From Escherichia phage 121Q: a stretch of 64,000 bases of DNA. The stretch's first letter is position 1; every line of letters begins with the position of its first letter. Position numbers and translations under genes: made by a program. The notes under the pieces are model-generated. The model had not been told where the DNA came from. It saw only the letters and a list, made by a program, of their open reading frames with translations, and ran no database searches. Shown in pieces: positions 8,850 through 28,174 of the stretch. Location: the sequence record NC_025447.1. One strand, 5' to 3'.

Positions 8850-9535
8850 TTAAAGATTTAGATAGAATTTTATATGTACTAAGGGGTGTAATTACATTAC
8901 ATCCACAAATCAATCGAATTGAAAGTACATTTCAGTTGGAGTCAAGAGAAACTCCATATTCACATATATCAAATGTAGTTGGTTCACTCAGTACTGAAGA
9001 CTCGTCTTACGATATTTGTGTATGTGAAGTACAACCAAGTTCGGATCTTGGATTTGCTATTTTTGATAAAGAACAAAATCTCATTAGTATGTTTCAGTGC
9101 AATAATCCTTTTTGGAAAACATGCCTGTATCCAGAGTGGGCTATGCTTGATCCAACCAAGAGTACCATTAAAGTTTATGACTCTAAAAATGATGAAGTCG
9201 TTATTGATTTGGATGAGTCAATGTCAGAGGAAGAACACTTTCAGCTAATGATGATGCGTGCTATGCCTGAGTACAATGCAATGATTAACACTGTGCAATA
9301 CATTAAGGATACTATGCCATCATTGCGTACACATGAGTTTTGTCATCCTGTATTGTATGAACATTTGGATTTAGATTTCAGTACTATTAAATTCAAAGAT
9401 AGTATTATAAAATATATTCAAGAAAATGTTAAATTTAATTTCATTAGTACTATGAACAATAATCCAAAAACGAATTTTAGGCATCAGTACAATGAATCTT
9501 TTTCTAATGGTCGTGATACCAGTTGGTGGAAATAA
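8846..9535 (+). CDS. hypothetical protein (TTG start)
   Basis: ORF in track. Confidence 0.4.
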   Translation: MIKDLDRILYVLRGVITLHPQINRIESTFQLESRETPYSHISNVVGSLSTEDSSYDICVCEVQPSSDLGFAIFDKEQNLISMFQCNNPFWKTCLYPEWAMLDPTKSTIKVYDSKNDEVVIDLDESMSEEEHFQLMMMRAMPEYNAMINTVQYIKDTMPSLRTHEFCHPVLYEHLDLDFSTIKFKDSIIKYIQENVKFNFISTMNNNPKTNFRHQYNESFSNGRDTSWWK

Positions 9536-9536
9536 T

Positions 9537-9800
9537 ATGAATATCCAAGATAGATTACAATTACTGTACACTATTGAACAGGCTGCTTTTGAACTTGTTC
9601 GAAAAATATCAGATGAACTACCTAAAGGAACTAAAGTTCGTGTACGTGAGATGAATTATTTTTCTGGAGTAATTGAAGAACAAGTACTAACAGTGAATAA
9701 AGTAACATACTATGAATCTGAGTTGTCTATTCAGTGTGAATCGGATGATGGATTAATATCATATTATGGAACTGATGTAGATATAGAGGTAATAAAATGA
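9537..9800 (+). CDS. hypothetical small protein
   Basis: ATG 9537 with RBS GGTGGA, directly after previous stop. Confidence 0.45.
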   Translation: MNIQDRLQLLYTIEQAAFELVRKISDELPKGTKVRVREMNYFSGVIEEQVLTVNKVTYYESELSIQCESDDGLISYYGTDVDIEVIK

Positions 9801-10939
9801 CCCTTTTACAAATATATGAAGATTTAATGCACTTATGTAATACAAACGATGCGTTTTTTTATGTGGATCATAAAAGTCCTGCTGGTGGTACGTATCGTGT
9901 ATTCAGTTATCGTCTAGCATCATACACTGATTTCATGCAACCAAATGCGTTGGAAACCCGTGGCTCTATGTGGGAAATTGATGAAGAAGGTGACATGATA
10001 CGTTGTGCAGCACGTACAATGAAAAAGTTCTTCAATGCTTACGAGAATCCTGCTACAATGTTCCCTGCTAACACCACATGCGATGACATTGCGGTAGTTA
10101 TGCCTAAGTTGGATGGTTCGATCATCAGTACTTATCGTGATAATGATGGTGAGATTCGTTGTAAATCACATACTGCATTGTATTCTGACCATGCGATTAA
10201 CAGTACTCGACTTATTAACGAGAACCAGAATTTGTATCAGTACATCGACGAAGCGGAACGTTTAGGTTACACAGTTAATATGGAGTATACAAGCCCAGAG
10301 TACCGAATTGTATTACCATATCAGGTAGAACAACTGTTTGTACTGAACGTTCGACATCGTGTGAGTGGTGAGTTGCTATGTGGTAAAGCACTACGTGATA
10401 AGTTTCCATGCCTTGCACAGTACAGTACTAATATGACCGGAAAAGATATTCATCACACTTTTCCGGTACGAAATACCTTCCGTGAAAGCGTGGAGGAAGT
10501 TCATAAAATGCTTGATATTGAGGGTTTTGTGTGCATCCTAAATAATGGGACAATGTGTAAAATAAAGACTGACTGGTACAGTTCATTACATCTTACAAAA
10601 GATAGTATTATTATTGATTCTCATTTATATGAAGCCGTATTAAATGGTTCAAGTGATGATTTAAAACAATTGTTCAGTACTGATGAATATGCTATGCAAA
10701 AGATATTAAGAATGGAACAATTGGTATTTTCGTGCTATAATGCATTACAAGATGAAGTAGAAAGCTTCGTCAAGGAACACAAGCACTTGGAGCGAAAGGA
10801 ATTCGCAATGAAGGTTCAGGAGTGTTTAACTAATGAACTGAATCGTCAGGGCTTGGCCTTTGCAATGTATAACAATAAGAAAGTTGATTACAAAGAGACT
10901 CTTATAAAATACATGAAAATTGTACTAAAGGATTTTTAG
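9797..10939 (+). CDS. rnlA: RNA ligase 1 (T4 Rnl1-like)
   Basis: 380 aa; recalled T4 Rnl1 similarity along the length (TYRVFSY, KLDGS nucleotidyl-lysine motif, IKTDWY, GSSDDLK). Confidence 0.85.
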   Translation: MTLLQIYEDLMHLCNTNDAFFYVDHKSPAGGTYRVFSYRLASYTDFMQPNALETRGSMWEIDEEGDMIRCAARTMKKFFNAYENPATMFPANTTCDDIAVVMPKLDGSIISTYRDNDGEIRCKSHTALYSDHAINSTRLINENQNLYQYIDEAERLGYTVNMEYTSPEYRIVLPYQVEQLFVLNVRHRVSGELLCGKALRDKFPCLAQYSTNMTGKDIHHTFPVRNTFRESVEEVHKMLDIEGFVCILNNGTMCKIKTDWYSSLHLTKDSIIIDSHLYEAVLNGSSDDLKQLFSTDEYAMQKILRMEQLVFSCYNALQDEVESFVKEHKHLERKEFAMKVQECLTNELNRQGLAFAMYNNKKVDYKETLIKYMKIVLKDF

Positions 10940-10969
10940 TACTATCTAGCCTAAGCACAAGGAGAAGTG

Positions 10970-11224
10970 ATGGCTAAACCTAAGTATAAAAATGACGGTT
11001 CCCTTTCTCCGACTGAGTTCAGGAAAATACAAGAAGAAATCGATGAATTACAGCACAAACGCTCAATGAAAGGTGTGAAGATAAGTAAGAAACGAATCGA
11101 GAATACCTTCGGATGTAGTAGTACTGAATACAAGAAGAAAAGGAAACCAAAAGGTGTTAAGCCGAGAATACATGATGTAACTCGCTATACATCGAAACGT
11201 GAAAATAAATTTGATCCACTATAA
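10970..11224 (+). CDS. small basic protein
   Basis: RBS AAGGAG; Lys/Arg-rich. Confidence 0.45.
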   Translation: MAKPKYKNDGSLSPTEFRKIQEEIDELQHKRSMKGVKISKKRIENTFGCSSTEYKKKRKPKGVKPRIHDVTRYTSKRENKFDPL

Positions 11225-11233
11225 GGAGTTCAT

Positions 11234-11464
11234 ATGAAAGTTGAAGTTCAGCATAGTATTGTTCAGGATATGTCAGTAGTTAAATTTCTTTCTCTGAAAG
11301 ATTACTTCAGATGTATCAAGTTCCTAGAAGAATCTCAATTACAGTGGACCCCATTAAAGTACAGTTCATCCAATGATACAGCTAGTATTCGTTGTGATGA
11401 ATCTGTACTTGTGAAAATCTCCAAACGATTTGGAGTAGGAAAAGTTAATGAGCACAGTAAGTGA
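11234..11464 (+). CDS. hypothetical small protein
   Basis: ORF in track with RBS. Confidence 0.45.
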   Translation: MKVEVQHSIVQDMSVVKFLSLKDYFRCIKFLEESQLQWTPLKYSSSNDTASIRCDESVLVKISKRFGVGKVNEHSK

Positions 11465-11702
11465 CCTAAAATACTACAACAAAACTGCGGATACGTTTAT
11501 TACTCATTTATATGAAGAATTTAGTCGTATCCGTAAGGAATATACAGGTAAATGTATTTTATATAGTTCTTATCATAGTGGTGGAATTGAAAGTGCTTAC
11601 ATTACTAAAGTGAAGTTTTCTGATGACTATCAATTACTCTTTGAATTAGATGATTGTTTCGTTATTGAAGCTTGTTTGATAGTGGATGTTCTAGATAATT
11701 GA
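11448..11702 (+). CDS. hypothetical small protein
   Basis: ORF in track. Confidence 0.45.
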   Translation: MSTVSDLKYYNKTADTFITHLYEEFSRIRKEYTGKCILYSSYHSGGIESAYITKVKFSDDYQLLFELDDCFVIEACLIVDVLDN

Positions 11703-11708
11703 GGACAT

Positions 11709-12023
11709 ATGAATAAAGAACTTGCATTTGAGAGGATCGAAAAGTTAAAGTACATTGAAAAGGAACTAATAGAATCTGTCGAATCAATGGTCGAAGATTA
11801 CGTTTTCGATTTTAAGAAAACATTGATTGGATGTAAAGTTAAATGCTGGGATCATACAATCAGAGAATGGTTCAGTACTATAATTCTTGATGTTAAAGTA
11901 TCGCGTACTGCTATTGGTAATTTAGTAAATGGTGAATGCTTTGTATACACTGAATACAATAACGGAACAAGAAACCTTTCAAGAGGATGGCACAAACTCG
12001 AAGATGTAGAATTCATTGAGTAA
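11709..12023 (+). CDS. hypothetical small protein
   Basis: ORF in track with RBS. Confidence 0.45.
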   Translation: MNKELAFERIEKLKYIEKELIESVESMVEDYVFDFKKTLIGCKVKCWDHTIREWFSTIILDVKVSRTAIGNLVNGECFVYTEYNNGTRNLSRGWHKLEDVEFIE

Positions 12024-12035
12024 CAAGGAGTAATA

Positions 12036-12968
12036 ATGCCAACTATTACACTGACAGTTGGATTACCTGGGTGTGGCAAAACCACATGGGCAGTTCAAGA
12101 AATTAAAAATGCCAAATCGAAGACTATCAACATTAACCGTGATGACATTCGAGAATCAATGGCAGGGTCACATGATGCATACAAATTCAACGACGCTAAT
12201 GAGCAGTACGTAACTAAAATGCAGTTCAGTGCAGCAAATTCAGCAGCAGAGAATGGTTGGAACATCATTGTGTCCGATACGAACCTTAAACAACATTTCC
12301 GTGATGAATGGAAACGTTGGGCTAAAGATAATGAATACGACTACAAAGAAAAGAACTTCTACGAAGATTTCGTACCTAATGAAGATCGTGGTGCAGATGT
12401 TCATGTTTTCTTTAAGATTAAAGAGTTCGTAAAACTTTGTAAGAAACGTAACCTCATGCGTGAGCGTTCAGTACAAGATAATATCATCGACACTATGGCA
12501 GATACGTACTATTATAGTAAGGCCATGCACATTGGTTACTATGGTAATTCACGAGAAGCTGCTGTTATCGTTGATATTGACGGTACTCTTGCTCATAAAT
12601 GGGGTCGCAATCCTTACGATGAAAGTACTGTTCTTCAGGATACACCAGATGAAGAAGTTATTTTGTCTATTATCGCTGAAGCAGTTTTTCATAAACGCAA
12701 GATTATCGTCATGAGTGGGCGTACTGAAGGGTGTCGTGCTGATACCGAACAGTGGCTTAAGAATTGGGGTATTCCTTACGATGCATTGTTTATGCGAGAC
12801 ATAGATGATAAACGTCCCGATGATGTTGTAAAATTCGACCTGTACATGAAAAATGTGGTTGATCATTACGATGTTAAAAAGGTTTATGATGACCGCGATC
12901 AAGTTGTATTCATGTGGCGTAAGCTACTTGGCTTGAAAGTAATGCAAGTTGCAGAAGGAAATTTCTAA
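12036..12968 (+). CDS. pseT: polynucleotide 5-prime kinase / 3-prime phosphatase (T4 PseT-like)
   Basis: P-loop GLPGCGKTT at N-terminus, HAD phosphatase motif DIDGTL, C-terminus QVAEGNF like T4 Pnk; 310 aa. Confidence 0.9.
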   Translation: MPTITLTVGLPGCGKTTWAVQEIKNAKSKTININRDDIRESMAGSHDAYKFNDANEQYVTKMQFSAANSAAENGWNIIVSDTNLKQHFRDEWKRWAKDNEYDYKEKNFYEDFVPNEDRGADVHVFFKIKEFVKLCKKRNLMRERSVQDNIIDTMADTYYYSKAMHIGYYGNSREAAVIVDIDGTLAHKWGRNPYDESTVLQDTPDEEVILSIIAEAVFHKRKIIVMSGRTEGCRADTEQWLKNWGIPYDALFMRDIDDKRPDDVVKFDLYMKNVVDHYDVKKVYDDRDQVVFMWRKLLGLKVMQVAEGNF

Positions 12969-12973
12969 TACAA

Positions 12974-13000
12974 AAGGGATCATATGTTGGTCCCTTTTTC
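12974..13000 (+). terminator. rho-independent terminator
   Basis: AGGGATC...GGTCCCT stem plus T-run. Confidence 0.5.
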
Positions 13001-13017
13001 TTTTAAGGTATATTATA

Positions 13018-13194
13018 ATGAATGTAAAAACACAGATGTTGTTACAAAAAGAATACTTAGAAAATATAGAAATGTTCTATAGATTGTCTTTATACGAAAA
13101 TAAAGATAAAAAATATAACTTTTCTAAACAACTAAACACAAGTACTAATGATTATCTATTTTCATCAATGTTTTATGTGAGAGGTTTATTATAA
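13018..13194 (+). CDS. hypothetical small protein
   Basis: ATG after terminator with RBS AAGG. Confidence 0.35.
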   Translation: MNVKTQMLLQKEYLENIEMFYRLSLYENKDKKYNFSKQLNTSTNDYLFSSMFYVRGLL

Positions 13195-13454
13195 TGGATA
13201 AATTTCACACAGATATAACACAGATAGGTAATCTTATCAATAGTCTAATTACTGATTTAGAAGAAAAGTATTTAGGTCGAAATGTATACGTAGAAATGTA
13301 TGAAACATATGGTGTTATTGATATGATTTATTACAGTGCATTGAAGTGTGAAATACGTTTAACAGTATGTTTGTTTGAAAAAAATACATTCAACAGAAGT
13401 ACTGCAATTCGCCAAGTTGGAGTTGATGATATAGAATTATACGAGGAACAATGA
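13194..13454 (+). CDS. hypothetical small protein
   Basis: ORF in track. Confidence 0.45.
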   Translation: MDKFHTDITQIGNLINSLITDLEEKYLGRNVYVEMYETYGVIDMIYYSALKCEIRLTVCLFEKNTFNRSTAIRQVGVDDIELYEEQ

Positions 13455-13705
13455 TGTTTGAGCAAGACTTAGAGATATTCAAAAGTCATATTGATTACTT
13501 GACTATATTAGAAAATGATTTAACTACAAAGTACAAAGGTATTCGTGTTCTGTGCTGGTATGATGATTGGGATTATAAACGTGAACTCACTATTGATCGA
13601 ATTTATTTCAGTGACGGTGTACTAAATGTACATGGTGTAAATGATTTTGGTCATTCATATACATATTCTAATAATGCTAAATTTAAAAGGATCTACAATG
13701 AATGA
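13451..13705 (+). CDS. hypothetical small protein
   Basis: ORF in track. Confidence 0.45.
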   Translation: MMFEQDLEIFKSHIDYLTILENDLTTKYKGIRVLCWYDDWDYKRELTIDRIYFSDGVLNVHGVNDFGHSYTYSNNAKFKRIYNE

Positions 13706-14000
13706 ATATTATCATAATTTATTCGATTACATAAAACTAATAGATGATCTTTCTTTCGAATTTCTTAGTACTGAAAAAGTTCTTGAACCTCTCTATTATG
13801 ATTGTATTAGTTCACTATCTTTAGATGAAAAAGAGATATTATCAAATAATTTACCGTCAACCGTCTGTGTAATCAATGGTTCCAAGGCTGTGGTGTCTGA
13901 GGTTAATTTTCATAAATCACTTAATACAATTGTTTACAAGTTCGATAACACTTGGATCAATCATGTAACCAGTAATATTAAATCTGTGAGATTTTTATGA
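13698..14000 (+). CDS. hypothetical small protein
   Basis: start refined to ATG overlapping previous stop. Confidence 0.4.
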   Translation: MNEYYHNLFDYIKLIDDLSFEFLSTEKVLEPLYYDCISSLSLDEKEILSNNLPSTVCVINGSKAVVSEVNFHKSLNTIVYKFDNTWINHVTSNIKSVRFL

Positions 14001-14293
14001 ATATAAAAAAATTATTTGAACAAGTAAATTTATTGTACTGGTGTTCAGACGGTTCAGATAAGGAATATAGTGAAGTTTATTTAGAACTGTTTAGAACTGA
14101 AATTCATTATATTCGAAGATACTTAATTGATAACAAAACTAAAGTACAAGTAAGATACCATAATGGTACTTTAAAGGATGGTATAATTATTGGATTGATA
14201 GTTGCACGATGGTCTAGTAATATTAAAGTTGCAGTAAGATTAATGACTGATGATGGTGTCTACACAATAGAAGCTAGTGAGATTATATATTAA
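13997..14293 (+). CDS. hypothetical small protein
   Basis: ORF in track. Confidence 0.45.
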   Translation: MNIKKLFEQVNLLYWCSDGSDKEYSEVYLELFRTEIHYIRRYLIDNKTKVQVRYHNGTLKDGIIIGLIVARWSSNIKVAVRLMTDDGVYTIEASEIIY

Positions 14294-14599
14294 ATGGATA
14301 TACAAACATTCAATAAGCTAAAGTACTATGATAATGGTTTTGCATTAATAATTAACGAACTTGATGGGATACCATACGAATATCATAATCAATTAATGAA
14401 GATAGTAAAATGTATATGTGAAGAATTAAAAAGTATGTTTAAAAATGAATATGTTTATGATTTAGGTAATAGTAGCAAAAAACTATACATAAAAAAATTC
14501 TGGGGAACGCATTGTGGTTTAATGGTCGATTTAGGTTTAAGTTTAGACGATAATTCTGAATCATGTTCATTATATATAGATGAAATGCGAATATCATGA
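14294..14599 (+). CDS. hypothetical small protein
   Basis: ORF in track. Confidence 0.45.
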   Translation: MDIQTFNKLKYYDNGFALIINELDGIPYEYHNQLMKIVKCICEELKSMFKNEYVYDLGNSSKKLYIKKFWGTHCGLMVDLGLSLDDNSESCSLYIDEMRIS

Positions 14600-14656
14600 G
14601 ACGTATCAGAATTCGGTGATATAATTTGATTACATCACCAATGTGGAGAAGTTGAA

Positions 14657-14983
14657 GTGAATGGTTCGTTTTTAACAATTTTAGAAAAGACATCCGAGAT
14701 GCTTTCTAGTTCGTTAATGCACATTTTCAGTACTAATAATTTATACAATACCCAGGTGTTAGATTCAATTAGTAATAACTATGTGGTAAGTATATCTGAT
14801 GAAATATGTCCATTTAATGCGTATACGAATTATAGTGTAGAAGAGTTTCATATATCCGAGATTCGATGTGGTTTTGGTGCTTGGTTAGTTCTAAATGAAC
14901 GTTCAGGGACGTCTTTATACATCGAAGAAATTGATAAATTTATATACAAAGGAGTAGAATATGTTAACCCCAATCATTCTTAG
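14657..14983 (+). CDS. hypothetical small protein (GTG start)
   Basis: ORF in track. Confidence 0.4.
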   Translation: MNGSFLTILEKTSEMLSSSLMHIFSTNNLYNTQVLDSISNNYVVSISDEICPFNAYTNYSVEEFHISEIRCGFGAWLVLNERSGTSLYIEEIDKFIYKGVEYVNPNHS

Positions 14984-15590
14984 CAGTGCATATGTAATCG
15001 GTATTATTATTTCTGGTATGCTTGCATATAACTATAACAGAAGTGTTATAGGTTATGTAGTACTTGGTACAGTACTAAGTCCAGTGATTGCTATTGGTCT
15101 TCTTGTTATGCTAGGTGAGAAAAATACAAACTTCTTTATTACTAAAGAACTTGATAAAATCACCCCAGCACCAGAAACAGTTATTCCAGAAGTTAAAGAA
15201 GAAGTTAAAGAAGTTGAAGTGCAAATGCAAGTTAAAGTGTATAATACACTTGAAGAAACTGACCCTAAAGTTGTAGTGAATGTAGTTCCAGTCGTTGAAG
15301 ATGTGAAACCAAAAGCTCCTAAAGCACAGAAAAATACTAAAACTGCAAAGAAAGCTCGTTACACTAAAGGTAAGAACAAAGGTAAATCTAAGGATGAACC
15401 ACAACTAGGTGTTCATGACCATACTGCACAAATTGCAACGGCAGCGACCGCAGCAGCAATCGTAACATCACCAATCTACAACAATGATGATTACAGTGAT
15501 TATAGCCGTCACAGCAGTTCTTCCTCTGATTCTTGTTCCTATGATAGCTCTAGTTCTGATTCAAGTTCATCTTCTGGAAGTTGTGATTAA
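14961..15590 (+). CDS. membrane-anchored protein with Lys/Glu-rich middle and Ser-rich tail
   Basis: two N-terminal hydrophobic segments; low-complexity C-terminus. Confidence 0.45.
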   Translation: MLTPIILSSAYVIGIIISGMLAYNYNRSVIGYVVLGTVLSPVIAIGLLVMLGEKNTNFFITKELDKITPAPETVIPEVKEEVKEVEVQMQVKVYNTLEETDPKVVVNVVPVVEDVKPKAPKAQKNTKTAKKARYTKGKNKGKSKDEPQLGVHDHTAQIATAATAAAIVTSPIYNNDDYSDYSRHSSSSSDSCSYDSSSSDSSSSSGSCD

Positions 15591-15919
15591 TGTCAATGAA
15601 ACCACTAATTCAACATAATATTTTTTATAGGTCATTATTCAAAATTCAAGATGATTTTTATCAGACGTTGAGTAATGATCTTATAGGTAAAACTGTACGA
15701 TATTCGGAACAATACATCAAACGTATGACAAGTCAGTATATTGACCCTGAATACGAATACGACATTGAACACATTAATCCCAATACTAGAATGAAAATCA
15801 TTGAGATATTTAAGAATGGGAGAACTATAGGTGCTGAAATTGAGTACTTGAATTGTGATTGTTACATAGATACAGAGTTGAGTTTGGATTATCTTGTTTT
15901 AGTGGATGATGAGGAATAA
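15590..15919 (+). CDS. hypothetical small protein
   Basis: ORF in track. Confidence 0.4.
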   Translation: MSMKPLIQHNIFYRSLFKIQDDFYQTLSNDLIGKTVRYSEQYIKRMTSQYIDPEYEYDIEHINPNTRMKIIEIFKNGRTIGAEIEYLNCDCYIDTELSLDYLVLVDDEE

Positions 15920-15921
15920 TT

Positions 15922-16137
15922 ATGATAACATTTTTCGCAATATATGGATTTGTAGCATTTGTTACATTTATAACCAACTTTCTAGTACTTAATTGGGGTT
16001 GTTTTAAAGATGAAATCATGATTATCATGAATCTCCAAACAGCAGCACTGATGGCTATTATTTGGCCTGTAACGTTAGTATATATTTTTATTTCACTTAC
16101 CCAAGATATTATTAACAAATATAAGAGAAAGAAATAA
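15922..16137 (+). CDS. small membrane protein
   Basis: two hydrophobic segments in 71 aa. Confidence 0.45.
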   Translation: MITFFAIYGFVAFVTFITNFLVLNWGCFKDEIMIIMNLQTAALMAIIWPVTLVYIFISLTQDIINKYKRKK

Positions 16138-16388
16138 TGTTCAACAACGACTTATCACATTTGCGATATCTTATGTCTTTGGCTGATGATTTTATAAATG
16201 ATCTGAAGCCAAAATATATTGGTCAAGAAGTACGATTAATAAACTCCAGAGGGTATGGAAAATATATTATTACTGATATGTATATTAGTGGTGGTGAATG
16301 GCGTTTTAAAATTAATACTTATCTTAAAGATGGTTCTTTTGCTGGAACACAAGTTACTAAACACACTAATATTATATGGTTGGAGTAA
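16137..16388 (+). CDS. hypothetical small protein
   Basis: ORF in track. Confidence 0.45.
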   Translation: MFNNDLSHLRYLMSLADDFINDLKPKYIGQEVRLINSRGYGKYIITDMYISGGEWRFKINTYLKDGSFAGTQVTKHTNIIWLE

Positions 16389-16390
16389 TA

Positions 16391-17134
16391 ATGAAACATT
16401 TCTTAGAAGTAACCGTACCTGATGATAAAGATTTATACATTGTAGGTGATTTGCATGGTAATGGTAAACTATGGGATGCTACAGTGAAAGAATTTGGTAT
16501 TACACACAATGATTATGTTTTCAGTGTAGGTGATATTATCGACCGTGGAGAACAAAATTCAAAGCTCCTTTTTGAATTTTTGTTCGGAGAAAATCGTTAC
16601 ATGATTGCAGGTAATCATGAGATGATGTGCGTTGATTCGGAAACACTTCGAGATTGGTATCATTGTTGGATAAGTAATGGTGGTGATAAATTCCTTGATG
16701 AAGTTGGAGGAACAGGCATTCAATTCTTTCGTCAGTACTTAAAAGATCTCCCTATGATTATCCAAATCAATCACCGAGGCTTGAAGATTGGGTTAGTTCA
16801 TGCTGGAGTTCCGTTGGAATATACAACATGGGAACGATTTGTTAATGGGACAAAATCACTTAGTGCTGATATAATTGATAAGTGCTTGTGGGATAGGAAA
16901 ACATTCGATTATTGTAGAACGAATAATACCTATTATGCACCTAAGTTAGATGGAGTGCATTGTGTCTTTAGTGGACATACAGCAGTTACTGATCCACTCA
17001 TTTATGGTAATCGCATTTGGATTGATAGTCAGTTCTTGACGGGTGACTTAACTCTCGCTACTCCACAAAGTGGTGGGATGAGATACTTACGTAAAGAAAA
17101 AGATGAATACTCATTCAATCGTTTCAAAAGGTAA
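16391..17134 (+). CDS. Ser/Thr protein phosphatase-type metallophosphoesterase
   Basis: GDLHGN, GDIIDRG and GNHE motifs in canonical order. Confidence 0.75.
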   Translation: MKHFLEVTVPDDKDLYIVGDLHGNGKLWDATVKEFGITHNDYVFSVGDIIDRGEQNSKLLFEFLFGENRYMIAGNHEMMCVDSETLRDWYHCWISNGGDKFLDEVGGTGIQFFRQYLKDLPMIIQINHRGLKIGLVHAGVPLEYTTWERFVNGTKSLSADIIDKCLWDRKTFDYCRTNNTYYAPKLDGVHCVFSGHTAVTDPLIYGNRIWIDSQFLTGDLTLATPQSGGMRYLRKEKDEYSFNRFKR

Positions 17135-17139
17135 TAATT

Positions 17140-17409
17140 ATGCATGATGTAGTTAAAAAATATTTGAATGATAGATATATTATGAAAAAATCTATTAATT
17201 CTATCCTAAAAGATCATGCTAATCAAATACGTGAGATTCTATCAAATAAACTTATTGGTTGTTCAGTTGAGTTCAATTACAAAAAGAATGTAGTGAAGAT
17301 TGGAGTTATTAAACGTGTAGTTGCTGTTTATGACCAAAATGTATATGTTGAAATTGAATATGATGGTAAATTATCACAATTAAGTACTGAAGATTTAACA
17401 TTTTTATAA
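17140..17409 (+). CDS. hypothetical small protein
   Basis: ORF in track. Confidence 0.45.
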   Translation: MHDVVKKYLNDRYIMKKSINSILKDHANQIREILSNKLIGCSVEFNYKKNVVKIGVIKRVVAVYDQNVYVEIEYDGKLSQLSTEDLTFL

Positions 17410-17419
17410 GGAAATAGAA

Positions 17420-17647
17420 ATGAAAGTAATTCAAGTTATGGTAGAAAAATACCAAACTGAAGATGGTCGTATTTTTGATTCAGCTAAACAAGCTGAACAC
17501 CATGAACGTATTATTTCGGGTGCACGTAAAGTGTGTCCTACATGTAGTGGAACACAACAAGTACCGTCAGAAGATTACCGCAGCTTTTATGCTTGTCCAC
17601 ACTGTGATGGGAAAGGCTATGTAGAAAAACAAGAGGTATGGAAATGA
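17420..17647 (+). CDS. small zinc-finger protein
   Basis: CPTCSGT and CPHCDGKG motifs. Confidence 0.5.
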   Translation: MKVIQVMVEKYQTEDGRIFDSAKQAEHHERIISGARKVCPTCSGTQQVPSEDYRSFYACPHCDGKGYVEKQEVWK

Positions 17648-18057
17648 AATTGTATTGCTTAACTAATATGTACTGTCAAGGTGTCCAAGCTGGTATTCAA
17701 GCATTCCATGCTGGTGTTAAACTAATTAAAGAATATGAAGGTACTGCTTTCAGTACTATTATTGATGAATGGTACTATGAACACGAAACTATTGTAGTTC
17801 TAAATGCTGGTGGACATGATAAATTAAATTCTTATTATAACAACCTTAGCAAACAGGGGAAAGTTCCGTTTGCCAAGTTCAATGAAGCTGGATTGAATGA
17901 TGCTATTACCTGTGTAGCAGTACTGTGTACGTCTGAAATGATTGAAGACATGGCTGTTATGCGTATGAATCTTCCTGCTGGTGATCAACTAATGCAAGTA
18001 AAATATGGTGCATTGTTTGACACACTAAAAGCAATCAGTACAATGAGGACTATTTGA
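17638..18057 (+). CDS. hypothetical protein
   Basis: ORF in track. Confidence 0.45.
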   Translation: MEMKLYCLTNMYCQGVQAGIQAFHAGVKLIKEYEGTAFSTIIDEWYYEHETIVVLNAGGHDKLNSYYNNLSKQGKVPFAKFNEAGLNDAITCVAVLCTSEMIEDMAVMRMNLPAGDQLMQVKYGALFDTLKAISTMRTI

Positions 18058-19256
18058 TGGATTTTCCAGAGAAGTTATTTGTTGCACGTTCCTATGTAAA
18101 CCACAACCAAGTTGATGGTTTTATTATCGATGCAACAAAATCACATACAAAAGCGTTTGAAACAAAGAAAGAGAGAGCAGAGTACTGGGCAAAGAAGAAC
18201 AATCTTCCATCGTTATATATTGACAACGTTCCAACTACTGGATTTTGTGTAGTTGATAAATTAACAATTCATGCACGAGAAACATATTTCACAATCCGTC
18301 ACCCAGAAGGATTTGAATTTATGATTAGTGCCAAAAACATGAATGATTTAATTATCAATAACGATATAATCAAAGGTGTTTTTGTAGACCCAATGTTTTT
18401 CAACAATAACTTAGAATTAATTAATGGTAAAACAAAAACATTTGCTAAGTTAGTTGAAAAAGAAAATAAAAAAGAACAACAAAAAGAAACTGTAGCAGGT
18501 CTTAAAGTTGGTGATGGTTTCACGTATCTCAAAGAAGATTACTATTACTGCGGTAAAGTACATGCAATTTGTATAAAGAAAACTAAAGAATTTGCATACC
18601 CCGACAAAAGTTCTGTTTATCATTTACTTTTTAACAGTACTCGTGGAACTTATGCATTGAATCAACGTTTGGATAATTACAATCTGGAACCTCGTGCACT
18701 CTTGAATAAGAAAACTACGGCAGATGAAGAAATTAAACTTGCTAATGAATTTTGGCAAAGCTATAGAACAAACAGACATAATCCATTAGGTGAATCTAAC
18801 ATTCCAGTACTGGTACACAATAAATCATTTAAAGCAAAAGACCTAAAAATTAAATATGAAGAAATAAATGTTGATGATCTTATGAATAATGGACGTTTCA
18901 ACGAGAACGTACCATTTATGACTAAAGATAATGAACAATCTTATCGCGTATTTTTTGGTGTAAGTAATAATACAACACGTAGTTATTATGGACGTAGCGG
19001 GGATTATAATATTCATTATAATGATAAATTTGAACGCTTTAGTGCATACCCAGTTCAAATTGATGATAATGGAATTATGTCAATGGATGTTGATATTAAT
19101 GAGCACACATCATTTAGTACATGGAACGGTTATCGTTCACCATTCTTCCCACCAAATGAACGCAAAACATCAAGTTCTCGTTACTACCAAGATAAGCCGT
19201 GTCACGTTCAACTATCAATTAGTAATCCACTTTATATTGGAAAGTATTATCTATAA
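18057..19256 (+). CDS. hypothetical protein (400 aa)
   Basis: ORF in track; ATG overlaps previous stop. Confidence 0.5.
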   Translation: MDFPEKLFVARSYVNHNQVDGFIIDATKSHTKAFETKKERAEYWAKKNNLPSLYIDNVPTTGFCVVDKLTIHARETYFTIRHPEGFEFMISAKNMNDLIINNDIIKGVFVDPMFFNNNLELINGKTKTFAKLVEKENKKEQQKETVAGLKVGDGFTYLKEDYYYCGKVHAICIKKTKEFAYPDKSSVYHLLFNSTRGTYALNQRLDNYNLEPRALLNKKTTADEEIKLANEFWQSYRTNRHNPLGESNIPVLVHNKSFKAKDLKIKYEEINVDDLMNNGRFNENVPFMTKDNEQSYRVFFGVSNNTTRSYYGRSGDYNIHYNDKFERFSAYPVQIDDNGIMSMDVDINEHTSFSTWNGYRSPFFPPNERKTSSSRYYQDKPCHVQLSISNPLYIGKYYL

Positions 19257-19267
19257 AGGAATATACA

Positions 19268-20686
19268 ATGAGCATTTTAGCAATTCTTGAAAGCATTAAA
19301 AATACTAGCAGTACTCTGGGCAAAAAGGCTATTCTTGAACAAAATAAAGATAATGTAACTTTGCAAAAAGTTCTGAAATATACACTCGATCCTAGTATTG
19401 TAAGTGGGTATAAAAAGCTACCAGACGCTGATAACGTGTATCAACATATGACATTGGATGAAGCTATTGATAAACTAGAATGCATCTATAAGCGTGCATT
19501 GACGGGACATACAGGGCGTGATTTCATTGCTTCAGTACTAGGTAGTGTGAGTCCAGATGATGCTGAAGTTCTTCGTAAGATGCTTACAAAGAACTTAGAT
19601 TGTGGTATTCAAGAAAAGAACTGCAATGATGTATTTGGTAAAGGATTTATTAAAGATGAACCATATATGCGTTGTTCTTTGCTTGATAAAAAGACTGTTA
19701 AGAACATCAACTTCAAAGGTCATGGTTATGCTGTCTCCGAGGTCAAGATGGATGGTCAGTACTTAAACCATGTAGTCATTAATGGTGCTCTTACCTCTTC
19801 CTCCCGTAATGGTAAACTATATGACTTCTTAGGTTGTCGTGATGGTGAGATGGCAGGTCTTGCACATCAAATTCAAATGAATGATGAACGTTTTAGTAGT
19901 GGTGTCGTCTTTATGGGTGAAGGTCTAGTACTTGATAATGACGGTGAAACTATTCTTCCACGAACAACTGGTAATGGTATCATTCAGAAGGCTGGTAAAG
20001 ATAGTATTAGTCAGAATGAAGCAATGCGTACTGTATTTGTACTATGGGATGTTGTTCCGTATGATGCATTCTGTGAAGGTACATGGAATGTAAAACGTAA
20101 AGAACGTCGCGAACTTCTTGAATCTGCCATCAATGTATTGGGTAGTGATTTTGTACGTATGGTGAAATACCGTAAGGTTCAAAACATTAAAGAAGCATTT
20201 GAGTACAATAACGAACTCATGGATCAGGGTGAAGAAGGATCAGTACTGAAATGTGAAGATGGTATCTGGAAATCACATACATCTCCTAAGCAGTTGAAAG
20301 TAAAACTAAAAATGCAATTGGATTTGCGTATTGTTGGTTTCAACGAAGGTGAAGGTAAGCGTAAAGGTTCACTTGGTTCTTTACAACTTGAAAGTGCATG
20401 TGGCACACTGAAGGTAAATGTAGGAACAGGTATCCGTGAAAAAGATGCAGAGTGGACATTCAAAACCATTTGGGAACGAATGCAAGAACTAATTGGTAAA
20501 GTCGTTACCGTTGAGTGCAATGAGATTGTAATCGACAAGCGTACAGGTGAACCATCACTATTTTTACCAGTGTTTATTGAATTTAGATTTGACAAAAACA
20601 CTTGTGACGATTATACTCGTATCTTAGAAATTCGTGATAGTGCTGTTGAGGTGTTCTCTAACAGTATTATTGAAGCACTTAGCTAA
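19268..20686 (+). CDS. ATP-dependent DNA ligase (T4 gp30-like)
   Basis: N-terminus ILEQNKDN like T4 ligase; KMDG adenylation motif; 472 aa. Confidence 0.85.
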   Translation: MSILAILESIKNTSSTLGKKAILEQNKDNVTLQKVLKYTLDPSIVSGYKKLPDADNVYQHMTLDEAIDKLECIYKRALTGHTGRDFIASVLGSVSPDDAEVLRKMLTKNLDCGIQEKNCNDVFGKGFIKDEPYMRCSLLDKKTVKNINFKGHGYAVSEVKMDGQYLNHVVINGALTSSSRNGKLYDFLGCRDGEMAGLAHQIQMNDERFSSGVVFMGEGLVLDNDGETILPRTTGNGIIQKAGKDSISQNEAMRTVFVLWDVVPYDAFCEGTWNVKRKERRELLESAINVLGSDFVRMVKYRKVQNIKEAFEYNNELMDQGEEGSVLKCEDGIWKSHTSPKQLKVKLKMQLDLRIVGFNEGEGKRKGSLGSLQLESACGTLKVNVGTGIREKDAEWTFKTIWERMQELIGKVVTVECNEIVIDKRTGEPSLFLPVFIEFRFDKNTCDDYTRILEIRDSAVEVFSNSIIEALS

Positions 20687-20705
20687 TCATTTATTGGAGG
20701 TAATT

Positions 20706-21497
20706 ATGAAATTTGTTGTAACATCTGACGTACACGGTGGAACTGATTACCTCCATAGCGGTGATTACAGTGATGTAGTACTGATCATTGCTGGGGACTT
20801 CGATGAAGTTAAACGCAGTCGTTACCGTACTGGTATCGAATCACTGTGTAAGCAGTTCAAAAATGTAGTACTGGTTCCAGGTAATCACGAATATTATGGT
20901 TCCAATATCATCAAAACGCATAAAGTACTATCCAATATGCAGGATGAGATTCCTAATTTTATCTTTTTGCAAAACAAATTTGTATGGCTGGATGGAGTAC
21001 TGCTTGTTGGTAGTACTCTGTGGACAGACTTCGATAAAGGTAATTCTTTGACGAAGTTTGATGCTCGTCAGAAGATGAACGATTACAAACATATCCGTCA
21101 TGGAACAACATCAGAGCCTTGGCGTAAAAAACTGACACCTGATGATACTGAGTTTATGCATCACAAAGATAAACAATTTATCAAAAATTCTATTGACACA
21201 GTTCGCTTTATGCATGATAATGATTTCAAGGTCATCGTGATTACTCATCACGCACCAAGTTATCAAAGTGTTTCACCAAAATATAAAAATGATTCACTGA
21301 ATGGTTGTTACTGTTCCGATATGGATCAGTACATTGAAGATTTGGGTGCTGATGTTTGGATTCATGGTCATGTTCATAGTAGCTTTGACTACCACATTGG
21401 TAAGACACGTATCATTTGTAATCCACGAGGCTATGAATCGTATAGTGGATCTTGTGAGAATTTTGATTACAATCCTAAATTTGTATTTGAAATTTAA
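20706..21497 (+). CDS. calcineurin-like metallophosphoesterase
   Basis: SDVHGG, GDFD, GNHEYY and GHVH motifs; RBS GGAGG upstream of ATG 20706. Confidence 0.7.
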   Translation: MKFVVTSDVHGGTDYLHSGDYSDVVLIIAGDFDEVKRSRYRTGIESLCKQFKNVVLVPGNHEYYGSNIIKTHKVLSNMQDEIPNFIFLQNKFVWLDGVLLVGSTLWTDFDKGNSLTKFDARQKMNDYKHIRHGTTSEPWRKKLTPDDTEFMHHKDKQFIKNSIDTVRFMHDNDFKVIVITHHAPSYQSVSPKYKNDSLNGCYCSDMDQYIEDLGADVWIHGHVHSSFDYHIGKTRIICNPRGYESYSGSCENFDYNPKFVFEI

Positions 21498-22299: not shown

Positions 22300-22302
22300 T
22301 TT

Positions 22303-22331
22303 GGACATTTTAAATCTTAGTGATATAATAC
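22303..22331 (+). promoter_or_regulatory. sigma70-like promoter (TTGGAC, 17 nt, TATAAT)
   Basis: hexamers and spacing read from sequence. Confidence 0.5.
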
Positions 22332-22363
22332 TCACTACAACGAAATAATAGAGGAAATTAACA

Positions 22364-23059
22364 ATGGTTGAACAATTCATGTTTGGTGGTTATGCTAATG
22401 GCGAAGTACGTAACATTTCTATTCCTTACGTAGTTGAGAAAGTTAATGGTTCAGAACGTACATATGATCTAGCATCTCGTATGATGCAAGACCGTATCAT
22501 TTTCCTTGATACTGATTTCAATGATCAAATGGCACATATCATCAAACAACAATTGGTGTGGTTAGACTCACAAGGTGATTCCCCTATTACATTCTACATT
22601 AGTTCACCAGGTGGTTCAGTACACGCAGGTTTGGGTATTGCAGACGTTGCTAAGTCTTGTATTTCCCCAATCCGCACTGTAGTTATGGGTTATGCGGCAT
22701 CAATGGGTTGCTATACACAATCTGTTATTGGAACTAAAGGTTTCCGTTTAGGTGGTAAACGTTCATACTTCATGTGTCACCAAGTAAGTTCTGGTACACA
22801 AGGTCTAATTACAGACCAGAAGATTTCCCTACAACATTCTGATGCACTGAATACATTGTTGACCAAAGAAATTGCAGAAGCAGTAGGCGTATCACATGAA
22901 CAATTACTAAAAGATGCTGACCGCGATTTGTGGTTAAATGCAGAAGAAGCACTTGAATATGGTGAACATGGTTTCATTGATGGTATTATTCTTGGACCAC
23001 GTAACGAAGAAGGCAAGTACTTAGTTAAGCGTCGCGGCGGTGTGGAAGAGTGGGTGTAA
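22364..23059 (+). CDS. ClpP-family serine peptidase homologue
   Basis: SPGGSVHAGLGI...GYAASMG matches ClpP core. Confidence 0.65.
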   Translation: MVEQFMFGGYANGEVRNISIPYVVEKVNGSERTYDLASRMMQDRIIFLDTDFNDQMAHIIKQQLVWLDSQGDSPITFYISSPGGSVHAGLGIADVAKSCISPIRTVVMGYAASMGCYTQSVIGTKGFRLGGKRSYFMCHQVSSGTQGLITDQKISLQHSDALNTLLTKEIAEAVGVSHEQLLKDADRDLWLNAEEALEYGEHGFIDGIILGPRNEEGKYLVKRRGGVEEWV

Positions 23060-23107
23060 GATAGATTTTGATGCCTCAATATGGGGCATCATCTTTGTGG
23101 AGATTAT

Positions 23108-23398
23108 ATGAAAGTACTAGTACGTAATAATACGGAAGTAGCAAATGTATTAGAAGATTCCGATTTTATTAATGTTGCGTTCGATCAAATTAGTGCAGTA
23201 GCACTTGAGTTAAAAAATGTGGATGAATCTGAGCGTGTACTAAATGGTTTTGCAATTGTACTTGAATTAATGAAAGAAGTACTAATTAAAAAGAACATTA
23301 ATCCAGTTGATGCGGTTCAACATGCAGAAGCTGTGCGTAAAGAACACGGTACATTCTCTGACAAAAAATACATTCAAACTGATGAGGTAAAAGAATAA
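23108..23398 (+). CDS. hypothetical small protein
   Basis: ATG with RBS GGAG. Confidence 0.45.
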   Translation: MKVLVRNNTEVANVLEDSDFINVAFDQISAVALELKNVDESERVLNGFAIVLELMKEVLIKKNINPVDAVQHAEAVRKEHGTFSDKKYIQTDEVKE

Positions 23399-23399
23399 T

Positions 23400-23846
23400 A
23401 TGTCCAATGCACAATATAAAGATGGTTATGACGCATACAAAGCAAAAGTAGTTCTAAGTGCTGAACAGCTAAAAATGCAGCATCCATTATATCGTCAGGG
23501 CTATCGTGCAGCACAAGCAGAAGCAATGAAGAAAAATAATGTAACTTTCCCTACTACGCTATATGATATTCCTAAACGTCCACACATTTTTAAAGCTGAA
23601 TGGACTGATATTATGGCAGCGACAAAGCGTCCACGTTTTGCTAAATTACACACCGATGAAGGTCGCTGGTTGCTAATGGGGATTATGAAAGCAGTTGAGA
23701 ATCAATCTCATAAGATTGTTCGTTATAAAGATGTTGTTGCTATGGTTGATAAAGCATTTGACCTTGTACTTCAATATGGTTATGATGAAGGTGTACTAAC
23801 TGTTTCTGATTGTGAAAAATATCAGTACACCCCATATCAAAAATAA
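23400..23846 (+). CDS. hypothetical protein
   Basis: ORF in track. Confidence 0.45.
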   Translation: MSNAQYKDGYDAYKAKVVLSAEQLKMQHPLYRQGYRAAQAEAMKKNNVTFPTTLYDIPKRPHIFKAEWTDIMAATKRPRFAKLHTDEGRWLLMGIMKAVENQSHKIVRYKDVVAMVDKAFDLVLQYGYDEGVLTVSDCEKYQYTPYQK

Positions 23847-23857
23847 TATTACAAATA

Positions 23858-23885
23858 GGAATCCAGTACTGGATTCCTCTTTTTA
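23858..23885 (+). terminator. rho-independent terminator
   Basis: AGGAATCCAGTACTGGATTCCT perfect palindrome plus T-run. Confidence 0.7.
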
Positions 23886-23970
23886 TTGCTGTATATCAAT
23901 TTTCATCGATCAAAAAATGATCTATATAAGCTAAATACCCAAGGAATCATTGTTACTAGGGTAGGTGAAT

Positions 23971-24519
23971 ATGCAGCAATATAATTTAACTGAAGAACAA
24001 AGTGATATTTTTTATCATCATATGTTTTTAATTGATGAGTTTGCTTTGAAAATTAATTCTGAAGCAATTGATATATTGAAGAAATGGTATTCATGTTATA
24101 ATAAAAACAAAAAGTGGTATTGGTTTAATAGAAATTTAAAGTCATTTTTAAAAACAATAACACAAGTTGATAGTGTAGAAATGATACATAGTTCAATTGG
24201 ATATAGTTATTTGACTAAACACAATAATACTATGATGTTATCCGGTTTTAAAGTTGAAAGAATTTCAAAGCTTACAGGTTTATCATTAAAAACAATTTTA
24301 TATGATATAGAAAAGATTTGGAAAACTATAGAATTCATGCACAAAAATATGTCATTCATATATAGAAATTATGATATATTCACTGAGGTACGTCAATATC
24401 ATAATAAACCTTATGTATTGAATGAAAAGTACTATAATCATATGGAAGTTTGTTCTAAACTCGTTGATGATTGGAATCTAGAGGGACATAATGAAATACA
24501 CACACCTAAGTATAGATGA
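23971..24519 (+). CDS. hypothetical protein in a very AT-rich islet; possible HTH
   Basis: ORF in track; composition visibly more AT-rich than neighbours. Confidence 0.4.
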   Translation: MQQYNLTEEQSDIFYHHMFLIDEFALKINSEAIDILKKWYSCYNKNKKWYWFNRNLKSFLKTITQVDSVEMIHSSIGYSYLTKHNNTMMLSGFKVERISKLTGLSLKTILYDIEKIWKTIEFMHKNMSFIYRNYDIFTEVRQYHNKPYVLNEKYYNHMEVCSKLVDDWNLEGHNEIHTPKYR

Positions 24520-25015
24520 TACTAATATCTGGTTAGATAACATAATCAAGACATTAGAATTAATTAAACTTACATTACAAAAAACTACTGATATTGAAAT
24601 TAATATTAAACAAGAAATATTAAACTATTATCATAGAAACAAATATAGCACGTTTATCTCTAAATTAATTTATGGATTATATGATATTGAAGATATTTGC
24701 ATCGGTTACAGTACTGGTATTTGCTTCACTGTTAATGGTTTAAAAAATGATTTAAATTTCAGACTTTCCGATGAAGAGCAAGATTTTCGTAGATTTTGTG
24801 ATAATATTATGGATACAGACAAAATTACATTTGTGATTGAATTAAATCAAACATGGTCTACATATGCAGATAAACCATTTGAAATTAATGAAACAGATGT
24901 GTTAAACTATATTCGAGTTATGAAAATTCATGATTTGTGTAAAAACGCATTGTTAAGTATTGGAGCTTATAATGAAACATACGACTTGGTTGAAGATAGC
25001 AGAAGTAGTTGCTGA
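24491..25015 (+). CDS. hypothetical protein (AT-rich islet)
   Basis: ORF in track. Confidence 0.4.
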   Translation: MKYTHLSIDDTNIWLDNIIKTLELIKLTLQKTTDIEINIKQEILNYYHRNKYSTFISKLIYGLYDIEDICIGYSTGICFTVNGLKNDLNFRLSDEEQDFRRFCDNIMDTDKITFVIELNQTWSTYADKPFEINETDVLNYIRVMKIHDLCKNALLSIGAYNETYDLVEDSRSSC

Positions 25016-25451
25016 GGAAAGTAAATGTATTTCACAAAAAGTTGGTTGTGTTATTGTTAAAAATAATAGAGTATTGAGTACTGGATACAATGGAACGCCA
25101 TCTAAGCAGCCAAACTGTTGTGATGTAAATCAACATTTAGTGAACGATGGTCGTTTTCAAGACTGGGTTGATGATGCAGCAAAACATGAACATCATGAGT
25201 GGAGTAATATTCATGAGATCCATGCAGAGATGAACGCTTTACTGTATAGTTCTCCTACTGAACGCCAAGGAGCAACTCTTTACACAACTCTACAACCATG
25301 CTATACTTGTTCTAAGTTAATCGCAGGTAGTGGGATTACCCGTGTAATTTATCACAAAAGTTATCCACGAACACCACCTGAAGCGATTAAAGTACTGGAA
25401 GATGCTGGGATTATTGTTAACTGCATTTATGACAAGGGTATGAATCAATGA
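24972..25451 (+). CDS. cd: dCMP deaminase (T4 Cd-like)
   Basis: ESKC...STGYNG N-terminus, zinc motifs HAEMNA and PCYTCSKLI. Confidence 0.8.
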   Translation: MKHTTWLKIAEVVAEESKCISQKVGCVIVKNNRVLSTGYNGTPSKQPNCCDVNQHLVNDGRFQDWVDDAAKHEHHEWSNIHEIHAEMNALLYSSPTERQGATLYTTLQPCYTCSKLIAGSGITRVIYHKSYPRTPPEAIKVLEDAGIIVNCIYDKGMNQ

Positions 25452-25702
25452 CATTTATGATTGTTGGATTTCTATCAATATTAGTATTATTTTTTATAAC
25501 AGTAATGTTTGTTATTGATGATAATGACATTTCTCAACGAAACTATGAAGTGCGTTTTTCTGCACAAAACAACAAGTACTACATTGTAAACTGTATACAC
25601 CGTAGTGAGAAAAGGGTAACAAGTAGATTTGGATTTACCATTTATTATAAAGACCGAGTAGAAGCTGACATGATTTGTCAGAAGCTTAATACTGTAGAAT
25701 AA
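25448..25702 (+). CDS. small membrane protein
   Basis: N-terminal hydrophobic segment. Confidence 0.45.
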   Translation: MTFMIVGFLSILVLFFITVMFVIDDNDISQRNYEVRFSAQNNKYYIVNCIHRSEKRVTSRFGFTIYYKDRVEADMICQKLNTVE

Positions 25703-25733
25703 AAAAAAAGGAGCCACAAGGCTCCTTTTTTGT
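25702..25733. terminator. bidirectional rho-independent terminator
   Basis: A-run, GGAGCC...GGCTCC stem, T-run; sits between convergent genes. Confidence 0.7.
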
Positions 25734-26110
25734 TAACCAGGGATGTTACAATAATACAAATCCCAAGGGTGATATTTCATTTCTCCAGTACTCAATTTAA
25801 TTTTATGAAACTGGAATGATTCGGCAAATGCACTATCATCAATCTTAATACAAAAAGTATTTTTTGCTAAAGTTGGTGCAATCTCTAGTGCAGTTTTAGT
25901 TGCATCTAATCTGATTTTATCTTTATCAAAACTTGTTATAGTTACAAAACGATAAACATTAAAATCAGTGTCGATAAGATCGTAAACACAACTAGAACGT
26001 TGATTAAAGATGTTCAAGTTATATTTCAATTCACCGTTTATATTAGCGGCGGTTACACAAAAGCCGCCGATATTGAATGGTAATTTACCTTGTGCTGCTA
26101 TAGCTTTCAT
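25733..26110 (-). CDS. hypothetical protein on the minus strand (125 aa)
   Basis: ORF in track; RBS GAGGAAA upstream on minus strand. Confidence 0.5.
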   Translation of the reverse strand: MKAIAAQGKLPFNIGGFCVTAANINGELKYNLNIFNQRSSCVYDLIDTDFNVYRFVTITSFDKDKIRLDATKTALEIAPTLAKNTFCIKIDDSAFAESFQFHKIKLSTGEMKYHPWDLYYCNIPG

Positions 26111-26238
26111 ATTTTATTTCCTCTTATTAATAAACAACTACTTTTACAGATTGTTGTACCTTTTATATTTACACCGTCAACTAAATATCCACCTAAAGTG
26201 AATGGAAATTGGTCTTGTCCTGCGATTGGTTCCCCCAT
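26107..26238 (-). CDS. small minus-strand ORF (43 aa) resembling the N-terminus of the downstream 125 aa protein
   Basis: hand-translated; RBS AAGGAG 9 nt upstream; stop overlaps next start (ATGA). Confidence 0.35.
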   Translation of the reverse strand: MGEPIAGQDQFPFTLGGYLVDGVNIKGTTICKSSCLLIRGNKI

Positions 26239-26357
26239 TAAGGGCACTCCTTATAAAAAAGCTTTACATTTGGTATGGGTTTGTGATAGAATCTTCACAG
26301 TGATTGTACTAAGGGGATTATCAGATGAGGGAAATTTGAGTTAAGTACAGAAAAAGT

Positions 26358-26386
26358 TTGACTTAAGTGTTTAAGTACTATATTAT
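26358..26386 (+). promoter_or_regulatory. sigma70-like promoter (TTGACT, 17 nt, TATTAT)
   Basis: read from sequence; precedes the 26420-29475 gene block. Confidence 0.45.
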
Positions 26387-28165: not shown

Positions 28166-28174
28166 GGATCGAAT

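Follow-up and report, generated by a model that had tools for sequence, protein, structure and literature searches.

The 64,000-nucleotide stretch of Escherichia phage 121Q analysed here (sequence record NC_025447.1; hereafter the window) carries two genes, rnlA and pseT, that probably encode a functional T4-type RNA break-repair pair. The phage itself is an Asteriusvirus-type jumbo coliphage, a type with genomes of about 350 kb. rnlA (9797-10939, + strand, 380 aa) is a homologue of T4 RNA ligase 1 (Rnl1), and pseT (12036-12968, + strand, 310 aa) is a homologue of T4 polynucleotide 5'-kinase/3'-phosphatase (Pnkp), so that the healing and the sealing enzyme are encoded by the same phage. The original prediction described a complete T4-type healing and sealing pair about 1 kb apart with four small open reading frames (ORFs) in between, and this description stands. 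Both enzymes are full length, have the domain architectures of T4 and keep the catalytic residues. According to the ORF list of the window, they are separated by 1,096 bp on the + strand with exactly four + strand ORFs in the gap, all six genes being co-directional. The match scores of both proteins are far past chance, and synteny across genera complements homology, domain architecture and catalytic residues as evidence.

RnlA is assigned to the T4 Rnl1 family, and ATP-dependent sealing of a broken anticodon loop is its predicted activity. The protein matches Pfam RNA_lig_T4_1 (E 9e-16), PHROG 562 (E 3e-109) and the sequence of T4 Rnl1 structure 2c5u (E 1.5e-56). For the NCBIfam equivalog TIGR02308, 'T4 RnlA family RNA ligase', it scores 292.6 bits, where 242.25 would suffice. 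Residues 268-379 form the all-helical C-terminal domain that is specific to Rnl1 (PF20819, T4_Rnl1_C; E 6.6e-17, 62.4 bits with a cut-off of 27). This domain is implicated in tRNA specificity. Motif I, K104-L-D106-G107, aligns with K99-E-D101-G102 of T4, where K99 is the lysine nucleophile. Residues R55, K77, F79, E163, E242-G243, K255, K257, and Y261 match T4 R54, K75, F77, E159, E227, G228, K240, K242, and Y246, which are presumably the essential positions reported in the mutational literature on T4 Rnl1; no open-access source confirming that list was found. The sole departure among the tested residues is at T4 K119, which is replaced by histidine (H125) in the enterobacterial RaK2-like phages, including this one, and is lysine in phage XaC1. 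A literature check on K119 likewise found no open-access source.

PseT belongs to the T4 Pnkp family by every sequence feature tested, and its enzymatic activity is predicted accordingly in kind. It matches Pfam AAA_33 and HAD_PNKP (E 1.9e-43) as well as PHROG 505 (E 1e-96), and its match to the T4 Pnkp structure 1ltq spans both proteins from one end to the other (residues 2-310 versus 2-301, E 3.7e-38). As in T4 Pnkp, a kinase followed by a phosphatase is fused in a single polypeptide of 310 aa. The kinase domain contains the P-loop G9-L-P-G-C-G-K15-T16 together with D36 and R39 (T4 K15, S/T16, D35, and R38). R142 corresponds to T4 R126 in both the HMMER and the six-sequence alignment, with a shift of one residue at this position in a pairwise MAFFT alignment. 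The phosphatase domain contains D180-I-D182-G-T184, R191, S227-G-R229, D262, and D285-D286, for which the T4 counterparts are D165, D167, R176, R213, D254, and D277/D278.

The closest described system is that of T4, in which RnlA (gp63) and PseT carry out the restriction-repair of tRNA-Lys that counters the nuclease PrrC. The enzymes of the window share families, domain architectures, catalytic residues, and gene order with this pair, although they are no more than 36-39% identical to the T4 proteins. Besides the K119 replacement, each enzyme differs from T4 by an insertion. That of RnlA comprises about 19 aa at approximately residues 198-216 and is common to every RaK2-like relative examined, and that of PseT lies in the kinase domain, comprises about 25 aa at approximately residues 108-133, and is found in all RaK2-like relatives examined, being longer in XaC1. 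The upstream neighbour of the pair also differs from T4, as it is not denA. Bacterial Pnkp1-Rnl-Hen1 and Pnkp/Hen1 systems have the healing-plus-sealing logic in common with the window pair, and among the structure-sequence matches of PseT a bacterial Pnkp1 chain (4xrp) ranks second (E 5e-32). Unlike the bacterial Pnkp/Hen1 systems, no Hen1 methyltransferase is seen near the pair, and the ligase is of the T4 Rnl1 type.

The pair would act in two steps. A metal-independent tRNA nuclease leaves 2',3'-cyclic-phosphate and 5'-OH ends, which Pnkp would turn into 3'-OH and 5'-phosphate ends, after which Rnl1, with its T4-specific C-terminal domain, would reseal the anticodon loop using ATP. Translation would thereby be restored when a PrrC-type anticodon nuclease of the host fires. 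Selection of the phage by tRNA-targeting defence, as the original prediction proposed, is plausible and a reasonable extension of T4 biology. Defences that cleave tRNA are now viewed as widespread and include PrrC, RloC, PARIS, some retrons, Septu, and others; phages counter them with tRNAs of their own or with repair enzymes.

Other genes of the window provide supporting context. A gene located 35 kb downstream of pseT, at 48061-49293 (+ strand, 410 aa), encodes a nucleotidyltransferase of the RlaP family (RNA ligase-associated Pol-beta; PHROG 388; PF10127 E 6e-16, above the cut-off) and is predicted to be a third RNA-repair component. According to a recent preprint (PMC12776372), enzymes of this family extend damaged RNA 3' ends by one or two nucleotides and are required to rebuild tRNAs after nucleotide loss. 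T-even phages also have a distant RlaP-type homologue, nrdC.11, located elsewhere in the genome, as it is here. Downstream of pseT are genes for a NinI/lambda-phosphatase-like metallophosphoesterase (16376-17134, + strand) and a PTH2-like peptidyl-tRNA hydrolase (17638-18057, + strand). A jumbo coliphage with an intact Rnl1, Pnkp, and RlaP set is a sensible test case for repair as a counter to tRNA-cleaving defences.

The gene layout suggests that rnlA and pseT lie in one tightly packed transcription unit, 7961-12968, that ends at a terminator past pseT. The window is AT-rich (~33% GC) and dense with + strand genes, and the minus-strand ORFs of the region are short and nested within supported + strand genes. 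Between 7961 and 12968 there is no intergenic room for a promoter and several genes overlap. The rnlA start codon overlaps the stop codon of the upstream ORF (ATGA), the ORF list together with a check of Shine-Dalgarno sequences shows stop/start codon overlap at two junctions, and Shine-Dalgarno-like sequences precede all six genes of the locus. An intrinsic-terminator-like hairpin with a T-run (12972-12998, + strand) begins 4 nt past the pseT stop codon, and the terminator scan places another terminator-like hairpin upstream at 7923-7942 (+ strand), with none in between. It is the lack of promoter space, the gene overlaps, and the flanking hairpins that together suggest a single unit ending at pseT. 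A terminator is annotated at the equivalent place in phage G17 and also 3' of the kinase gene in Salmonella phage Munch.

Several points weigh against reading the pair as a functional counter-defence module. Both Rnl1 and Pnkp contain insertions specific to the clade. Co-transcription and the limits of the unit are inferred from consensus terminator scans only, and a scan for sigma-70 promoters gave 64 sites against 71.6 expected, no better than shuffled sequence. Finally, the 64,000 nucleotides contain no tRNA genes. Rfam families are likewise absent from the window, and a search for repeats in the region gave none of relevance.

The core finding, namely the pair and its interpretation as tRNA repair, is already known, because the genes are annotated in the records of relatives and have been interpreted in three papers. 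Asteriusvirus records carry the labels 'RNA ligase' and 'polynucleotide kinase' at this locus, and the annotated pairs PBECO4 gp129/gp125, G17_00487/00482, RaK2 gp464/gp470, and Serratia BF gp072/gp076 are the same genes. For RaK2, the genome paper (2013) listed 'two RNA repair proteins', gp464 and gp470, and suggested a tRNA repair pathway; the phAPEC6 paper (2020) discussed the pair as tRNA repair or anti-Prr; and a comparative review of jumbo phages (2021) covered RlaP, Rnl1, and the kinase-HAD phosphatase as RNA repair that counters host defence. For Asteriusvirus, the literature held no report that phages without rnlA or pseT are restricted by hosts carrying an anticodon nuclease.

At the DNA level, the locus shares 98.7% identity with that of slurp01 and ~97% with those of G17 and other phages; with PBECO4 it shares 96%, an indel aside. 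The RnlA protein is 100% identical to PBECO4 RnlA. Beyond these close relatives, the lineages compared were RaK2 (Alcyoneusvirus), Serratia phage BF (Eneladusvirus), Salmonella phage Munch, Xanthomonas phage XaC1, and two metagenomic contigs, L010 and L012. All of them, and T4 as well, have rnlA first, then small ORFs, then pseT. The number of ORFs between the enzymes differs, being three in PBECO4, BF, Munch, and XaC1, four in the window, G17, and 121Q-type phages, and five in RaK2.

The four small ORFs of the window are designated o85 (10970-11224), o76 (11234-11464), o84 (11448-11702), and o104 (11709-12023), all on the + strand. Judged by their sequences and distribution, they are two classes, a conserved o85 and o76 and a fast-turnover o84 and o104, and not one functional set. 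The original prediction overlooked both the conservation of o85 and o76 alongside the enzymes and the RlaP gene. None of the four matches a family in Pfam, NCBIfam, or PADLOC; three match only PHROG families of unknown function and o84 matches none. Sequence and fold comparisons also gave no match to a described anti-defence or defence family.

Counted from the ATG start annotated in relatives, the product of o85 has 84 aa; a start at the GTG at 10967 would give 85 aa. It is basic (pI 10.1, 24 lysines plus arginines) and matches PHROG 15306, a family of unknown function. The gene occurs in 60 phage records, of which every named one is a RaK2-like jumbo phage, and its relatives form 63 protein clusters. 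In RaK2, BF, Munch, XaC1, and both metagenomic contigs, o85 lies directly 3' of rnlA. The AlphaFold2 (AF2) model consists of one long helix and a short helix (pLDDT 80), and neither the model nor the sequence gave a fold or family match. A resolvase/IS3-like helix-turn-helix, proposed from the motif KRIxNTFGVSSTxYKK, is not borne out by that model, and there was no fold or Pfam match.

The 76-aa product of o76 is encoded between rnlA and pseT across the RaK2-like clade, in five named lineages and in contig L010, which has a 64-aa version; contig L012 is without it. Its identity across genera is 55-67%, compared with 49-64% for Rnl1 and 45-64% for Pnkp, which makes o76 as conserved as the enzymes. 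The protein belongs to an orphan family, represented by 30 clusters in a set of 5.8 billion proteins, and a profile search of 1.84 billion representatives returned three true members plus spurious matches to long repetitive proteins. The model has a confident ββαββα fold with generic structure matches only.

The other two ORFs are of a kind common throughout this genome arm. The acidic, variable 84-aa product of o84 has no PHROG or Pfam match; the gene is missing from PBECO4-type relatives and has no homologue in RaK2, BF, Munch, or XaC1. The product of o104 (104 aa) is also variable. It matches PHROG 31355, a family of unknown function, and has no homologue in the other genera compared. In PBECO4 it is strongly diverged (E 6e-18 only), though the flanking genes are >96% identical. 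In the record of phage fEgEco12, the PBECO4-type o104 bears the label 'transcriptional regulator'. A candidate paralogous family comprising o84, o104, and the ORFs at 9492, 13194, 13451, and 13997, defined by an N-terminal helix and a β-rich C-terminus, was not borne out: pairwise matches were weak (E 0.0015-0.14) and jackhmmer recruited nothing.

Other genera place different small ORFs in the same interval. BF, Munch, XaC1, and contig L010 have a different ORF of ~75 aa between o85 and o76, and contig L012 has one between o85 and pseT. As a control, 35 ORFs of the window (4254-17647) were compared with the sequence lying within ±4 kb of the module in four other genera. Matches were limited to rnlA, o85, o76, pseT, and a 245-aa ORF, plus one weak match. 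The 245-aa ORF (6887-7624, + strand; PHROG 16105) is, apart from the four genes just named, the sole conserved one in the vicinity. It is 64-70% identical in RaK2, BF, and Munch, where it lies just upstream of rnlA, and it is directly upstream of rnlA in contig L012.

The arrangement in T4 serves as a control for what can be read from position. On the T4 coding strand the order is rnlA, alc, pseT.3, pseT.2, pseT.1, pseT, so that here, too, four small ORFs separate the two enzyme genes, which are 1,432 bp apart. Alc is annotated as an inhibitor of host transcription, PseT.3 and PseT.2 as Rz-like spanins, and PseT.1 as a conserved hypothetical protein. The four ORFs of the window are without similarity to these proteins: phmmer found nothing at E < 0.1, and a relationship of o76 to PseT.1 was rejected when hhalign of the o76 profile against PseT.1 gave a probability of 0.1%. 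Since three of the four T4 ORFs do unrelated jobs, a position between rnlA and pseT is no evidence for a role in tRNA repair or nuclease inhibition and is a poor guide to function.

These observations bear on three other explanations of the locus. The suggestion made originally that the intervening ORFs are candidate inhibitors of tRNA nucleases is not supported, and it is highly improbable that even one of them directly inhibits such host enzymes. Small early ORFs of phages often encode anti-defence proteins, and this general tendency, with the position beside repair genes, is the only support for the idea. Against it stand the family searches described above, the variation of o84 and o104 even within the genus, the Alc, spanin, and PseT.1 genes at the counterpart positions in T4, and the consideration that an inhibitor would render the repair pair partly redundant. 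A different proposal concerns the enzymes themselves, which might mainly serve phage RNA metabolism or virion assembly instead of counter-defence, either by processing or repairing phage transcripts or through the non-catalytic tail-fibre attachment described for T4 gp63. The T4-derived description 'tail fiber protein attachment catalyst' does appear in PHROG and GenBank labels, and conservation of the enzymes from E. coli to Xanthomonas phages fits housekeeping as well as it fits defence evasion. However, all of the catalytic residues and the C-terminal domain of the ligase are under conservation, and the linkage to Pnkp along with the RlaP and PTH2-like genes points to RNA-end repair. In T4, moreover, rnlA and pseT are established to be dispensable on non-restricting hosts. 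A main role in RNA metabolism or assembly is thus quite unlikely, and RNA break repair is preferred.

The remaining possibility adds to RNA break repair and concerns the new part of these results, the conserved presence of o85 and o76 between the enzymes throughout the clade. There is an outside chance that both are dedicated accessory subunits of a four-gene module, rnlA-o85-o76-pseT. The basic o85 might bind tRNA or RNA or tether the enzymes, perhaps via the Rnl1 and Pnkp insertions, and o85 and o76 might bring in substrate tRNA, link Rnl1 to Pnkp by way of those insertions, or protect repaired tRNA from being cut again. Such a module would be a previously unrecognised multi-subunit phage tRNA repair complex. 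Its attraction lies in the retention of both genes between the enzymes in five RaK2-like lineages with enzyme-like conservation, at a locus where few of the 35 neighbouring ORFs have homologues within ~4 kb in other genera. The placement of o85 directly after rnlA even in the most divergent contigs, its pI of 10.1, and the presence of the Rnl1 and Pnkp insertions in every lineage that has o85 are also in its favour. Yet the whole backbone is syntenic in contig L012, where the order is the 245-aa ORF, rnlA, o85, pseT, metallophosphoesterase, a 400-aa ORF, and DNA ligase, so the linkage of o85 and o76 may reflect ancestry only. The same contig lacks o76, neither protein gave a fold or family clue to a role, and the T4 ORFs at the equivalent place have functions unconnected with repair. 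o85 and o76 may therefore simply be conserved backbone genes of the RaK2-like clade, with a conservation that is real and a meaning that is ambiguous, and a real functional link to repair is unlikely. They are still the only two of the four ORFs that merit testing, because only they are conserved with the enzymes across the clade.

Several further genes lie downstream of pseT. They include a conserved 400-aa ORF (18054-19256, + strand) with a homologue in contig L012, an ATP-dependent DNA ligase (19268-20686, + strand), and a second metallophosphoesterase (20634-21497, + strand). With the first metallophosphoesterase and the PTH2-like hydrolase they make up a cluster for end processing and rescue at 16376-21497. 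The order pseT, metallophosphoesterase, 400-aa ORF homologue, DNA ligase is also kept in L012. A deaminase gene at 24960-25451 is annotated as a dCMP or tRNA-adenosine deaminase in G17 and matches Pfam dCMP_cyt_deam_1 here. Labels mapped from G17 only, at about 22300-35300 and 62100-63500 (+ strand), comprise ClpP, Sir2-like, NUDIX, PhoH-like, and WGR-domain proteins, an anaerobic ribonucleotide reductase, a tail lysozyme, and a protein resembling ribosome hibernation factors.

Two groups of paralogues occur on either side of the repair locus. Upstream, five tandem small ORFs (4254-5663, + strand; 88-103 aa) are paralogous, with pairwise phmmer E values of 1e-4 to 6e-8, and the series begins right past a terminator at 4213-4237. 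Downstream, two large paralogues of 898 and 939 aa (39951-42647 and 43173-45992, + strand; E 3e-62) are followed at 46060-47660 by three smaller paralogues of 188, 173, and 169 aa. Both the large and the small ones are hypothetical in the G17 record. An ORF of 929 aa near these paralogues (50000-52789) carries a label noting similarity to a 121Q tail fibre.

The DNA also has an unusual composition of short palindromes. Across the whole window (1-64000), AGTACT occurs 177 times, compared with 17.4 ± 4.2 expected from dinucleotide shuffles, and CAGTACTG occurs 36 times against 0.76 expected. The flanks of AGTACT lengthen the palindrome to about ttCAGTACTGaa. The sites are distributed over the three reading frames as 77/35/53, with 12 in non-coding DNA. 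Codon choice follows the motif: Ser-Thr is encoded by AGT-ACT in 77 of 121 cases (16.5 expected), and use of TAC for tyrosine is 83% in the context xAG-TAY-Txx versus a background of 29%. In comparisons that extended to loci L001, L002, L005-L009, and L012, an 8-11-fold enrichment was common to G17, PBECO4, RaK2, BF, Munch, XaC1, and contig L012, and was absent from T4 and contig L010. The codon bias, the presence of sites in all frames, and the sharing across the clade point to a phage-intrinsic DNA signal, which would be a protein-binding or a modification site. No mention of this enrichment was found in the searchable literature.

Other palindromes are avoided. Eight of 6 bp, namely ACCGGT, ACGCGT, AGCGCT, AGGCCT, CAGCTG, CCATGG, CGATCG, and CGTACG, are wholly absent from the window, with about five of each expected from base composition, and the tetranucleotides GGCC, CCGG, CGCG, and GATC are depleted 2-4-fold. 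This pattern of absence and depletion is consistent with restriction-site avoidance.

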